Below are positions 39,144 to 43,840 of a DNA stretch of 64,000 bases, piece by piece (position 1 is the first letter of the stretch; every line of letters begins with the position of its first letter). The notes beneath the pieces are model-generated. The model ran no database searches, was not told the origin of the DNA, and saw only the letters and a program-made list of their open reading frames with translations. Position numbers and translations under genes: made by a program. Origin of the DNA: an uncultured Methanosarcinales archaeon (GTDB lineage Archaea; Nanobdellota; Nanobdellia; Woesearchaeales; ARS49); assembly GCA_964637115.1 (NCBI GenBank), contig CAZWVL010000007.1, positions 1 to 64,000 on the forward strand, given 5' to 3'.

Positions 39144-41873
39144 TTAGTCAGTTGTTTTAATTATGCGCTTAACGTCAATCTTGCCGCTCTCAGAACGCGC
39201 AACATCAACACCGTCTTCACCGTATGCAAACTGGATGATTCTGCCATTTGCATCACGAACCGTGCCGTCATATTCAACACGCAAGTCCTGCATTGCGTTT
39301 GCCAAACGACGGTAAAGATAACCGGACTTTGGCGTACGCAAAGCAGTGTCCATAAGAGCGTCTCTTCCGGTAATTGCGTGGAAGAAAAACTCCTTAGGAT
39401 TAATGCCGTGTTTGAAACCGTGAATGATAAAGCCGCGTGCTTCAGGCGACAAGTCATTGCGCTTGAAACAGCTCAATGTTCTCTCCCTATAGCCCTTCTC
39501 GATACGCTTTCCACGCATAGCCTGCTGGCCAACACAGGCACTCATCTGAATAAGAGAAGTAATACTGCCTCGCGCGCCAGACAAAATCATGACAGCAGCC
39601 ATGTTCGAATCATTTACGAAACCTTTGATAACCTGACCGCAAGCGTTACGCGCCTTGTTCAAGCGCTCCAAGATTTTCAGCTCCAAAGTTTCCCTCATTG
39701 TTCTGCCCGGGAACACTTCCAACTGCTTATTCTTGTAACTCTCAATCATAGCTGCAGCATCTTCCTCGGCCTGCTGCAAAAGCTGGTCAATCTGCTCGCG
39801 CGCTTCCTGCGGCAAGTCCTCATCAGCAATACCTGTAGAGAATCCGCGCTGCAGCAAATACTCAATACCCAAGCGGAAAATCTGATGGATAATCTTGATC
39901 GTCTTGGAAGGACCGTATTCCTTGTGCAAACTTCGCAACAGCAAACCCTCGCCTTCACCACCGATGGCCTTGGTGTCAATAACACCTTCCATCAGCGTGC
40001 CATTCTTGATAACAACCAATTCCCCAGTTCGCGAGTGGCCTTCATAGTTGAAGCCCTCAGGCAATAATGCGCTGAAAATTTCTCTTCCAGTAACTTTCTT
40101 CTTTGAACCAATCTTTCCAAAGTCATTGATGCCAACAGCAGCCAGCAGCATGGATGCCTGCTCGCCTGTCAATTCACCGTGCTTTGTAAGCAAATAATTT
40201 CCGCTGATTGCATCCTGAATGCAGCCAATGACTGAAAGACCATACCTTGGCGAAATCAATTGTGTTTGAACTTCCATCAAAATCTCGGCTTCTGCCCTTG
40301 ATTCCTCAGTCTGAGGAATGTGGAGGTTCATTTCGTCACCGTCAAAGTCTGCGTTGTAAGGGTTACAGACAGCAGGATTAAGCCTTAATGTTCTGCCCGG
40401 CAAGACTTTTACTTTGTGACACATCATGCTCATCCTGTGCAATGAAGGTTGTCTGTTGAAAATAGCGACATCGCCGTCCATCAAATGGCGCTCTACAACG
40501 TAACCAGGCTGCAATTCTTCCAAAGCAGCCTCCTTTGTTTCCTCAGTAATCTTTTTCTTCTTGCCATCAGGCCTGACAACATAATTAGCGCCCGGATAAA
40601 CGCCAGGACCGTTGGATACAAACTTCTTCAAATAAACCATGTTCCATTCATTGACAGTTTCCGGAACAGTGAGCTTCATAGCAATAATCTTCGGAACACC
40701 AACCTCATTCAATGCAAGCATCGGGTCAGGCGAAATGACTGTTCTTGCACAGAAGTTTGTTCTCTTACCAGCAAGGTTATGACGGATACGGCCTTCCTTG
40801 CTCTTAATACGCTCGGTAATCGTCTTCAAAGGCTGACCAGAACGGTGTCTGGCAGGAGGAAGCTGCGCAATACTGTTGTCAAAGAAAGTTGTAACGTGAT
40901 ACTGCAACAAGTCCCACAAGTCCTCAATGATAATCTCCGGCGCACCAGCATTAATGTTTTCGAACAACCTCTGATTTATACGAACGATGTCACCTAACTT
41001 GTGCGTAAGATCGTCCTCAGAACGTTCACCAGATTCAAGAGTGATGGATGGCCTGACTGTGACAGGAGGAATCGGAAGAACTGTCAAAATCATCCATTCC
41101 GGCCTTGCAGTCTTGGAATTCAGACCAAATAATTCAGAATCTTCATCTGAAATCTTTTCCAGGCGTGCCCTGATTTCTATAGGAGAAATACGCTTATCGC
41201 CTTCTATATATGTAGTCGGCTTCTCGATAGTAATCTTTGACTGCTTTGCCTTGCAATGAGGACACTTGCCACCAGTCTTTGAAGAATCAATCAAAGCCTT
41301 AACTGCCAAACGCCTTGCTTCAGGGCCTTCCTCTACCTCAATCCTGTCCAAATGGGCTTTTGCTTTTGCCAATTTCTCAGGAGCAATCATCAACTTTCCG
41401 CATTCACGGCAGGAAGTTTTCAACAACAAATGAATAATTCTGACAAACTTAACGTGAATGACTGAACGCGCCAGTTCAATGTAACCAAAGTGGCCAATGC
41501 ATTCCTTCAACTTACTGCCACAAGTCTTGCATCTCAAACCAGGGTCAATGACGCCCAAACGGACGTCCATAAGTCCACCATCAACAGGATAACCTTCCTT
41601 ATCATACAATTCTGGAGTCACGATCTTGGCAGACGCCATCTTCTTGACCATCTTAGGAGAAAGAACACCGAAAACTACACTAGCAACCTGCTTGAAAACA
41701 TAATGCTGGATTGCTTCCATCCGCTCTCTTGAAAACTGCTCTTTCTCAATTTTCTCTTCCTTTGGAGCTTCAGCTACCTTTTCAGCAGCTTTTTCAGCTA
41801 CAATTTCCGCTTTCACTTCTTCAGCCGCAGGGGCTTCAGTTGTTACCGCTTCTTCCTTTTTCTTGCGTGGCAT
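39144..41873 (-). CDS. rpo1N: RNA polymerase subunit A' (Rpo1N)
   Basis: [32 protein letters not shown]; start MPRKKK after GAGGA. Confidence 0.97.
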
Positions 41874-41877
41874 AGTG

Positions 41878-42061
41878 TTCCTCAATACTTATTCTTCAAC
41901 TGCAAACTTTCGGAAAGTTTGATCAAATCGCTCCTTGTCTCGGCTCGAGAAACATTCCATCCGCTGTTTTCTTCGAAAACAGGTTTAATACTTTTCTCTC
42001 GCCTCGACAATGTCGCGAAACTCATGTTTTTGTTTCCTCAATACTTATTCTTCAACTGCAA
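41878..42061. mobile_element. 128-nt hairpin-rich insert (41906-42033) flanked by 28-nt perfect direct repeats
   Basis: TTCCTCAATACTTATTCTTCAACTGCAA at 41878-41905 and 42034-42061; several hairpins between. Confidence 0.7.
41882..42025 (-). CDS. Candidate 47-aa ORF created by the insert; ends with the Rpo2C terminus LQLKNKY
   Basis: MSFATLSRREKSIKPVFEENSGWNVSRAETRSDLIKLSESLQLKNKY*; GAGGA SD upstream. Confidence 0.35.
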   Translation of the reverse strand: MSFATLSRREKSIKPVFEENSGWNVSRAETRSDLIKLSESLQLKNKY

Positions 42062-43840
42062 TCTTGGATAAATACCCAAGCTCTTGAACTCGTCCAAGAT
42101 AAGCTTGAACGCGTATGAAATTTCAATGTCAGAGATTTCAACATTTTCTCCGCAAATCGGACAATATCTTTTGTCCTTGAACTGGTCGTAAATGGCAATC
42201 ATACCACAACCTTCGCAGACCGGCACAACAGTCTTGTCAGAATCAAAACGTTCTTTCAAGAGCAATGATGCGCCGTGCGCGACAAAAGTATCCTTCTCCA
42301 TTTCACCCAATCTCAAACCGCCTTCCTTTGCACGACCTTCAGTCGGCTGTCTTGTAAGCAATTGGATTGGACCTCGTGCACGCGAGTGAATCTTGTTCGC
42401 AACCATGTGCTTCAACTTCAAATAGTACATGTTGCCAACGTAAATCTTCGCTTCAAACATTTCGCCACTCATACCGTTGTACATCGTCTCATTACCGGCT
42501 TCGTTAAAGCCCAACGAGGCAAGCGCTTTCCTGATTTCAACTTCAGGCTCGCCGCTGAAAGTAGTGCCGTCGATAATCCTGCCGCCCAAAGCAGCAGTTT
42601 TTCCGCCAATCAATTCAATCAAGTGTGAAATAGTCATACGCGAAGGAATACCGTGAGGCGAGAAAATAAGGTCCGGCATAATACCTGATGCAGTAAAAGG
42701 CATATTTGATTCAGGCACGATAAGACCAACAACTCCCTTTTGACCGTGGCGTGAAACAAACTTGTCGCCAATCTCCGGAATTCTTTGATCTCTCATTCTG
42801 ACCTGGACCAATTTGTTGCCTTCCTCGTTTTCAGTCAAAACAACAAAGTCAACAACGCCCTCTTCACCGTGTCTAAGAGAGATAGATGATTCACGCCTGA
42901 TGTTTGATGCTAAACTATATTCCTCGAGATTTGAGAGGAATCTTGGCGGAGAAGTTTTCCCAATAATAACGTCCTCTTCTTTCACTTTAGCTTCCGGATA
43001 AACAATACCGTCGCCTTCGAGGAATCTGTAATCTCTTTCTGACTTGTAGCCCTTGACGTCCTTGTCTGGAATGCAGACAGAGTCCATAAGGCCTCCTGAA
43101 TAACGAAGTTCCTCGCTGACTGCTGGCCTAAAGTAAGTGCTTCTGCCAAAGCCTCGCTCGATAGAACCCTTATTGATAATGACTGCGTCTTCCATATTAT
43201 AACCCTTGTAGCTCATGATCGCAACAACAATATTTTGACCGCTTGGGTGCGCGCTGTACTCGGACAATTCGTGCATCATTGTTTGCACTAAAGGCATCTG
43301 AGGATAATGCAGCAAGCTAACATCCATGTCCATCCTGACAGGGAAGTTTTGAGAATAAAGACCAATAGACTGCTTCAAGTTTCTTGAACCAATAATCAAA
43401 CGAGCAGACTGAATATAGTCGCCATAAGGAATAAGAGCGGTGACAATGCCCAGCATAGCCAAAGGAGAAATTTCCAAGTGCGTGTACTCTTGAGTCAAGT
43501 CCTGATCTGAGAACGCGATAAGACAGTTTTCCTCTTCAGCTGCATCAATGAACTCAATGACGCCCTGATCGATAAGGTCAGACCAAGTTATTTCTCCCTT
43601 CTGCAATTGCTTGACGTGCTTATCAGTCAAGGCCGGCATGCCTTCATTGACAACAATCAAAGGCCTTCTGCATCGGCCTCTAGAACTCTCAACACGCACT
43701 TCATCAAGAACTTCATCATAATAAACGTTAACGTTAGTTGATAAAGCGCCAGAACGTCTGTCTGTTCTAACTTTCTTAGCATATTCCTGACCATTATCAA
43801 CATCGCCTACAAACTTGCCGTTCAGGTAAACTTCACTCAT
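42038..43840 (-). CDS. rpo2C: RNA polymerase subunit B' (Rpo2C)
   Basis: GDKFVSRHGQKG, EGGLRLGEME, CEGC..CPIC. Confidence 0.97.
   Translation of the reverse strand: MSEVYLNGKFVGDVDNGQEYAKKVRTDRRSGALSTNVNVYYDEVLDEVRVESSRGRCRRPLIVVNEGMPALTDKHVKQLQKGEITWSDLIDQGVIEFIDAAEEENCLIAFSDQDLTQEYTHLEISPLAMLGIVTALIPYGDYIQSARLIIGSRNLKQSIGLYSQNFPVRMDMDVSLLHYPQMPLVQTMMHELSEYSAHPSGQNIVVAIMSYKGYNMEDAVIINKGSIERGFGRSTYFRPAVSEELRYSGGLMDSVCIPDKDVKGYKSERDYRFLEGDGIVYPEAKVKEEDVIIGKTSPPRFLSNLEEYSLASNIRRESSISLRHGEEGVVDFVVLTENEEGNKLVQVRMRDQRIPEIGDKFVSRHGQKGVVGLIVPESNMPFTASGIMPDLIFSPHGIPSRMTISHLIELIGGKTAALGGRIIDGTTFSGEPEVEIRKALASLGFNEAGNETMYNGMSGEMFEAKIYVGNMYYLKLKHMVANKIHSRARGPIQLLTRQPTEGRAKEGGLRLGEMEKDTFVAHGASLLLKERFDSDKTVVPVCEGCGMIAIYDQFKDKRYCPICGENVEISDIEISYAFKLILDEFKSLGIYPRLQLKNKY

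Follow-up and report, generated by a model that had tools for sequence, protein, structure and literature searches.

The window analysed here, a 64,000-nt stretch of a woesearchaeal genome (NCBI GenBank assembly GCA_964637115.1, contig CAZWVL010000007.1, positions 1 to 64,000), carries a 128-nt DNA-hairpin cassette at the junction of the RNA polymerase genes rpoB' and rpoA', flanked on each side by a copy of the rpoB' gene end. The cassette is a real and recent insertion, acquired after the species split from its sampled relatives, with a target duplication of 25–28 nt. It belongs to a family of protein-less, modular DNA-hairpin cassettes of Woesearchaeota, of which relatives hold dozens of further copies. 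No description of these cassettes was found in open-access papers and preprints, searched also by sequence and by peptide, and the family is apparently undescribed. The genome of the window, designated G000, is a metagenome-assembled genome (MAG) of 27 contigs and 98% completeness.

A duplicated rpoB' end in the RNA polymerase operon

On the minus strand, the operon runs in the order rpoH, rpoB'', rpoB' (rpo2C; coding sequence 42038–43840), rpoA' (rpo1N; coding sequence 39144–41874) and rpoA''. Positions 42034–42061 and 41878–41905 form an exact direct repeat of 28 nt with a spacing of 156 nt, extending to 32 nt with one mismatch, and the insert of 128 nt lies between the two copies. These coordinates and the identity of the copies agree with the original prediction, which had been drawn from the letters of the window. 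An exact repeat of 28 nt with this spacing exceeds by far what chance would give. Read on the minus strand as TTGCAGTTGAAGAATAAGTATTGAGGAA, it takes in the final seven rpoB' codons, which encode LQLKNKY, together with the TGA stop and the Shine–Dalgarno sequence GAGGAA.

The first copy (42034–42061, minus strand), located by the repeat search and single in the empty alleles of relatives, remains attached to rpoB', the end of which (RLQLKNKY-TGA) is given by the list of open reading frames (ORFs), the translation and the alignment with relatives. Because this copy supplies the last seven codons and the stop, rpoB' is intact. The second copy (41878–41905, minus strand) is a spare rpoB' end, and its GAGGAA is the Shine–Dalgarno sequence of rpoA', whose ATG (41874–41872) is situated 6 nt past the duplicated GAGG. 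The essential operon thus survives the insertion, since the first copy keeps the end and stop of rpoB' and the second keeps the ribosome-binding site of rpoA'.

The cassette, also read on the minus strand, begins with the 5' leader ACAAAAACATGAGT (42020–42033), which resembles a weak motif of the family alignments, GACCTGAGTT, and holds a chance ATG at 42025–42023. The body is a long imperfect hairpin (41929–42019), evident from folds and from RNAalifold, whose apical hairpin (41964–41982) carries a loop of the C-GAA-G type. The 3' module (41903–41928) consists of TTTGATC followed by the terminal hairpin CAAACTTTC-C-GAAAGTTTG, forming the precise 3' end of the cassette. Four small palindromes had been proposed in the insert, and all of them were located, at 41903–41921, 41939–41951, 41964–41982 and 42005–42015. 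Three are better read as pieces of the one long imperfect hairpin, and the fourth, at 41903–41921, is the separate terminal hairpin.

The empty allele and the age of the insertion

Eight genomes of the same genus lack the insert: their rpoB'–rpoA' junction, ...AAGTAyTGAGGrAAAAAATGCC..., contains the repeat a single time. In a metagenome contig of 290 kb (L133), the identical 28 nt occur once and are followed directly by AAAATG. The comparison of this junction among related genomes therefore yields an empty allele with one repeat copy, and the proposal that the insertion regenerates the 3' end of the gene is borne out. The cassette is absent from the RNA polymerase operon in all 14 congeners. 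Of two exact-junction patterns searched in metagenomes, the first gave no match and the second recovered one relative, with an empty site. Because the relatives show a single-copy empty site, the arrangement in the window reflects a genuine insertion that duplicated its target, and of the species sampled only this one has it.

A repeat-induced chimeric join in the assembly is a very unlikely source of this arrangement. The MAG is divided into 27 contigs and the insert is a dispersed repeat, both of which would be compatible with such an artefact, but the same order of repeat, cassette and repeat is present at 40 other loci in about 20 independent assemblies. Furthermore, the insert and the second G000 copy share only 85% identity, so that their reads are not confusable, and the junctions are clean with both genes intact.

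The region 41600–42400 was also compared with the relatives on each side of the junction. The last 150 nt of rpoB' are nearest to G005, G009 and L133 at 92–93%, with G011 at 79%, and the first 150 nt of rpoA' are nearest to G011 at 92%, with G005 at 68%. This switch of the nearest relative is suggestive of an old recombination breakpoint and was not counted as evidence; the N-terminus of rpoA', Lys/Glu-rich by reading of the sequence start, appears to be fast-evolving, which could alone explain the switch. In addition, both repeat copies of the window are of the same type.

Sequence, structure and distribution of the cassette family

A search of the insert against its own genome, as envisaged in the original prediction, located a second copy at C9:14489–14614, 85% identical and situated between two convergent genes. 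With a covariance model, the element, of about 125 nt in the family, was detected in 26 of 61 genomes and in 10 of the 29 genera of the taxonomic family, with 1–16 copies per genome and exactly two in G000; G023, G064 and G081 are included in these genome tallies. Most copies from whole-element searches span model positions 4–15 to at least 120, and approximately 10 of 97 matches end early at the 3' side. For the family statistics, 83 distinct copies with flanks were collected outside these three genomes. None of them is more than 93% identical to another, and the nearest to the window copy, at 88%, resides in another species at another locus. Given this lack of near-identical copies, there is no sign of recent transposition within a genome.

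The alignment of 27 copies contains a weak 5' leader similar to GACCTGAGTT, the long imperfect hairpin, the conserved TTTGATC and the terminal hairpin CAAACTTTC-n-GAAAGTTTG, which ends the element. Applied to the same 27 copies, RNAalifold recovers 30 pairs, of which 15 show compensatory double changes, and G-U pairs are nearly absent, showing that the hairpin structure is under selection. Both strands fold as DNA (z of -4.4 and -3.7). The apical loop is C-GAA-G in 37 of the 83 copies, and 14 of the 83 carry the full GCGAAGC, a motif of the type that forms a very stable DNA mini-hairpin (reviewed in PMC13037366). The DNA folding of both strands, the scarcity of G-U pairs and the C-GAA-G loop together suggest that the structure acts as DNA, probably as single-stranded hairpins, and not as RNA.

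This structural conservation also bears on the view that the cassette is a structured element beneficial to the host, acting as a 3'-untranslated-region stabiliser, a processing or termination signal or a protein-binding DNA site, which was selected and whose spread is incidental. Sequence blocks and structure are kept across genera, 48 of the 66 copies with a left neighbour follow the 3' end of a co-directional gene or tRNA, and some loci are occupied in several species, all of which fit such a role. Nevertheless, the element is absent from 19 of the 29 genera and from most orthologous sites, this operon in the 14 congeners included, and G000 holds only two copies. The scarce G-U pairs and the C-GAA-G triloop point to DNA and not RNA, and Rfam gives no match at E ≤ 1 for either G000 locus. 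That just one species has the insertion in this essential operon gives it the look of an accident, and a selected host function is improbable as the explanation.

Insertion-site anatomy across the family

A significant direct repeat flanks 41 of the 83 copies, with a length of 12–88 nt, in keeping with the earlier statement that the repeat in the window far exceeds the ordinary target duplications of insertion sequences (IS). The right repeat copy starts 0–14 nt past the terminal GTTTG, directly after it in 27 of the 41 and within 7 nt in 39, and the left repeat copy ends 0–46 nt before the core. The duplicated stretches are mostly gene or tRNA ends. At coding targets, the end of the left copy falls about -2 to +4 nt from the stop codon, and in a few of these the first bases of the insert complete the stop. 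Dozens of unrelated targets are used, among them several tRNAs, in both orientations, as well as rpoB' and further protein genes. Neither junction shows a conserved motif.

The right junction is without microhomology in 35 of the 41 copies, and microhomology-mediated template switching was rejected on this ground. The 3-nt overlap of hairpin and repeat described for the window is real, consisting of the last three nucleotides (TTG) of the 3' module that are shared with the second repeat copy; since such overlap is lacking in those 35 copies, it looks like chance and does not appear to be a feature of the insertion.

The parallel that had been drawn with tRNA-associated cassettes, in which the 3' end of a gene is regenerated after insertion, is supported in the relatives, where the same element family lies behind tRNA and protein-gene ends and the ends are duplicated. 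In G000 itself, a tRNA is accompanied by a shorter cassette that shares the 3' module. This short two-hairpin cassette, GTGGGGCTTTATGCCCCAC ... TTTGATCAAACTTTGGATAAAGTTTG, is located outside the window at C2:148900–149170, beside the 5' end of the tRNA, and lies between two diverged copies of that 5' end together with the TTTTTAAGCTTATG promoter box. Hairpins related to it are found at C7:76736 and C8:45638.

Tandem arrays of gene end and cassette, closed by a further gene end, are present in G008 and G002. At one locus, three species carry cassettes of different subfamilies; the repeats there measure about 8 nt in two of the species and 56 nt in the third. In addition, at L108 (G085:C43), a gene end encoding HAKEVSELDI and a stop occurs in three copies around one cassette, full on the left, partial in the leader and again on the right. 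These stacked gene ends suggest repeated rounds of insertion or exchange at one site.

Spare gene ends as working alleles

The two repeat copies of a pair can be compared as alleles. Comparison of 23 coding pairs, with 285 codons in all, gives 63 synonymous codon changes against 15 that are non-synonymous, and the nucleotide differences are distributed 8/12/68 over the three codon positions. Both copies retain a stop even when its type has changed, for example TAA versus TGA. Between the two tRNA copies at L088, the differences in what appears to be the anticodon-stem region look compensatory by eye. Such differences are those of working genes, and a freely decaying spare would differ otherwise; hence, in the pairs that differ, one copy must until recently have served another lineage as a functional gene end.

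Searches for mobility enzymes and carriers

Profile searches of G000 gave no hit for TnpB, Y1 transposase, reverse transcriptase, tyrosine recombinase, Cas1 (PF01867), rve, DDE_Tnp_1, serine resolvase (PF00239) or IS110. Across the 61 genomes, TnpB (PF07282) lies above the cut-off in three, none of them element-bearing, and the match in G024, which has one copy of the element, is below the cut-off. A TnpB/omega-RNA system, in which a structured RNA would end at a guide flank, was rejected because the element-bearing genomes lack TnpB save for this sub-cut-off match. The Y1 transposase (PF01797) is absent from G000, G018, G067, G045, G011 and G013, and reverse transcriptase (PF00078) is absent from G000 and from most element-bearing genomes; TnpB, Y1 transposase and reverse transcriptase are also missing in the copy-rich complete genomes G018 (13 copies), G067 (11) and G045 (9). 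Neither the Y1 transposase nor the reverse transcriptase tracks the element across the family, and both were dismissed as movers. Retroposition was likewise discarded, with no reverse transcriptase in G000 and most copies spanning nearly the whole model.

The tyrosine recombinase family (PF00589) was not detected in G000, G011 or G013, of which G011 and G013 are 97–100% complete; the three genomes would therefore be without even a chromosome resolvase of the XerA type. Integration of the Cas1 or casposase type was rejected, because G000 contains no Cas1 and the repeat length is variable (12–88 nt) and not fixed. An antisense guide inside the cassette was also rejected: complementarity to the duplicated end has a median z of 0.05, and z exceeds 3 in only 2 of 41 copies. 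Between neighbouring copies, neither cargo nor an autonomous version was found, and the genes situated there encode MinD/ParA, NAC, Gins51, a rhodanese and an S-layer protein. The IMG/VR viral contigs contain no match to the 3' module.

A proposed course of rare insertion and lateral spread

The favoured explanation, to which as a whole roughly an even chance is given, is a two-tier model of rare de novo insertion and of lateral spread helped by homologous recombination. New sites would arise rarely, by a reaction at the exact 3' end of the cassette. A unit of the cassette and one gene end, popped out of its locus, would then travel laterally between related genomes and re-enter the same gene end in the recipient through one homologous crossover. 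The crossover would regenerate two gene-end copies, with a length equal to the carried homology, one being the donor allele and the other the resident allele, and repeated integration would give tandem arrays. The window copy most likely came in this way from an unsampled close relative.

The two-tier model is favoured by the empty site in eight congeners and L133, the lack of near-identical copies and the synonymous bias of the differences between repeat copies. It is further favoured by repeats that abut the exact 3' end, their variable length, the tandem arrays, the shared locus with different subfamilies and the absence of any matched enzyme. Several points weigh against it. The two copies in the window are identical and so say nothing on a foreign origin; neither a small circle nor a linear intermediate of cassette and gene end was seen, and no donor with the cassette at the rpoB'–rpoA' junction was found. 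The shared loci give conflicting signals as to which repeat copy travels. Homologous recombination on 12–30 nt of homology is inefficient in the organisms studied. The model leaves the origin of insertions at new loci unexplained, and the lack of an enzyme gene in a MAG of 98% completeness is compatible with supply in trans from an unbinned plasmid or virus.

This last point leads to the principal rival, in which an enzyme provided in trans, for instance by such a plasmid or virus, would move the cassette by classical cut-or-copy transposition. The enzyme would recognise the terminal hairpin and make wide, variable staggered nicks and thereby true duplications of 12–88 nt. The foreign-looking ends would arise later, through gene-conversion tracts from cassette-free relatives that overwrite one copy and stop at the cassette. 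A precise and microhomology-free 3' boundary fits this course of events, as do the many repeats that are 100% identical, those of the window included. Similarly, the terminal module is strongly conserved, as a protein-recognition site would be, and the left repeat boundary clusters between -2 and +4 nt from the stop, also in those pairs that are identical or nearly so. On the opposite side stand the nine detectable enzyme families without a match in G000, the 3' module without a match in IMG/VR, the housekeeping genes between neighbouring copies in place of any longer autonomous version, and the lack of near-identical copies in any genome. Moreover, we know of no transposase that makes duplications without a fixed length. 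Transposition is thus regarded as a possible but rather doubtful source of the cassette, and rare insertion followed by homologous spread is retained as the favoured explanation.

The 3' module across archaea

The 3' module extends well beyond the Woesearchaeota. The pattern TTTGATCAAACTTTCNNAAAGTTTG is present in more than 115 genome contigs, almost all of them archaeal, against about 0.02 chance matches expected, as estimated from the size of the collection. The carriers include Woesearchaeota, Nanoarchaeota, Aenigmatarchaeota, Nanohaloarchaeota, many ANME-1/Methanophagales, Methanosarcinales, Syntrophoarchaeum, Nitrosotalea and Thermococci. Outside the woesearchaeal family, the match is confined to the last ~32 nt, and most of these copies have TGCGAAGCRT, or a sequence close to it, in front of them; the GCGAAGC mini-hairpin is part of this stretch. 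A unit of ~36 nt, consisting of TGCGAAGCRT, TTTGATC and the hairpin, has its last 25 nt in common with the window cassette and was found on contigs L146, L174, L179, L198, L213, L214, L222 and L223, derived from ANME-1/Methanophagales, Methanosarcinales and Methanomicrobia.

Many of the outside copies lie in frame on the opposite strand of housekeeping genes, where they add the peptide QTL(G/R)KFDQNASQ, sometimes in tandem. The host genes encode GlmS (with an intein), an NAD-epimerase, a CCG-domain protein, PurL, a glutamate-synthase domain and TraB. Flanking repeats accompany only 3 of 59 short modules of the ANME-1 type.

The module also occurs in genes for structural RNAs. Archaeal tRNA introns, among them families of 'transposed' introns, are well known, and at L192:4086–4189, in a Woesearchaeota MAG, the 25-nt module is situated inside a tRNA gene, apparently in the anticodon loop as judged by eye. 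Rfam recognises this gene as a tRNA of 104 nt, and ARAGORN misses it. The insert looks like a tRNA intron made from the mobile module. The window copy resembles such introns in this module and differs from them in lying between two protein genes; splicing of it from RNA is not expected, since direct repeats would be unable to pair into a bulge-helix-bulge. In two further Woesearchaeota MAGs (L155:1225–1504, minus strand; L188:2649–2972, plus strand), a two-hairpin cassette with the same terminal module resides in the RNase P RNA gene, between the 5' strand of P1/P2 and P4 (GAGGAAAGTCC) by our own reading. The RNase P RNA of G000 (C18:6145–6465) has an ordinary 5' region at that place.

An alternative reading combines several of these elements. 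The cassette would be selfish DNA without an enzyme of its own, made up of a nuclease-resistant hairpin and a short 'address', namely the gene end of its last host, which would direct homologous re-entry into that gene in other lineages and swap gene ends between species in the process; the module would be a pan-archaeal mobile hairpin from which tRNA introns, the RNase P RNA inserts and the in-frame 12-aa inserts of ANME-1 enzymes derive. Taken jointly, these statements are put forward as a tentative and rather unlikely combination.

Comparison with known systems

The closest published phenomenon is insertion with long target duplication. It was reportedly treated by Nobusato et al. in 2000. 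In this class, known for restriction–modification units of naturally competent bacteria, the mechanism is unknown (Furuta, Abe and Kobayashi 2010, PMC2853133). In both systems the repeats are tens of base pairs long, variable and single-copy in the empty allele, often cover the 3' end of a gene and are accompanied by no mobility gene, and the published cases come mostly from organisms that take up DNA. The bacterial units are kilobase-sized restriction–modification gene units, whereas the window contains a gene-less archaeal hairpin cassette of 128 nt with a conserved terminal module and a precise 3' end. The 28 nt of the window are also just under the cut-off of 30 bp adopted by those authors (PMC2853133).

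Like MITEs (miniature inverted-repeat transposable elements), repetitive extragenic palindromes and their paired form (REP/REPIN) and Rickettsia palindromic elements (RPEs), the cassettes are short, non-coding, hairpin-forming, dispersed and patchy among relatives; the in-frame modules in ANME-1 housekeeping genes resemble RPEs in Rickettsia, but in archaea. MITEs have a short, fixed duplication of 2–10 bp and share their ends with an autonomous IS, whereas the duplications here measure 12–88 nt and G000 is without rve, DDE_Tnp_1 or IS110. REPINs depend on a REP-associated tyrosine transposase (RAYT/Y1), whereas no partner enzyme and no near-identical copies were found for the cassettes. Palindrome-associated transposable elements (PATE) derived from IS200/IS605 use a fixed target of 4–5 nt and make no duplication, unlike the long duplications without a conserved junction motif described here.

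There are also resemblances to elements moved by tyrosine integrases, which carry a surrogate gene 3' end, and to their integrase-less remnants. In both, the target end is regenerated and the displaced copy lies on the far side; the copies at integrase att sites can likewise be alleles of different hosts, and tandem insertions occur. Integrase elements pair one integrase with one target, whereas one cassette family here occupies dozens of targets and carries no genes, and G000, G011 and G013 are without a tyrosine recombinase.

The integron attC site, including that of archaeal integrons (PMC9668308), is similar in being an imperfect hairpin of 60–140 nt directly after a stop codon, with structure conserved more than sequence, and is thought to act as folded single-stranded DNA. 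By eye, ATCAAAC...GTTTGAT matches the attC core (RYYYAAC ... GTTRRRY) at 6 of 7 positions on each side, with the cassette boundary after GTTTG and not at G|TT. Unlike in integrons, there are no ORF–attC arrays and no IntI, the copies standing singly or in tandem and free of ORFs, and the target ends are duplicated, which attC recombination does not do.

The mini-ORF of the insert

The 47-aa ORF ending in LQLKNKY that had been reported for the insert exists, at 41882–42025 on the minus strand (P0001), and runs from the leader through the cassette into the second repeat copy. Its ATG, derived from the leader motif YTGAG, lies 10 nt after the duplicated GAGG, and on account of this spacing some translation might be possible. 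This start and the open frame into the duplicated rpoB' tail speak for the view that the insert created or brought in a real gene for a small protein. The second copy in G000, however, reads in another frame, with stops, and the family alignment has 1-nt indels. A stop-free sense frame crosses the core in 30 of the 83 copies, about the fraction of ~0.35 expected from our own rough estimate for 42 codons and three frames, made without a computed control. A genuine gene is hardly credible on these grounds, and the peptide is regarded as an accidental by-product of the insertion.

Biological significance

The case shows that a very compact archaeal genome, without a match to nine tested enzyme families, still gains DNA, even in its essential RNA polymerase operon, where the genes stay unbroken because two copies of the gene junction flank the insert. 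It contributes an example from a core operon with a documented empty allele, a family-wide test of the spare ends, negative results for enzymes and antisense guides, and the link of the module across archaea. For annotation, such sites yield spurious small ORFs and pseudo 'gene fragments'. Simultaneously, the 25-nt module connects the gene-end cassettes of DPANN archaea, a tRNA intron and the in-frame palindromic inserts in ANME-1 enzymes, which have so far been treated apart; it suggests a possible route for the origin of archaeal tRNA introns and offers a sequence handle for finding the protein or repair pathway that moves the cassettes. With the spare ends being working alleles of other lineages, the cassettes mark frequent recombination between lineages in DPANN archaea, and may themselves drive the exchange of gene ends.

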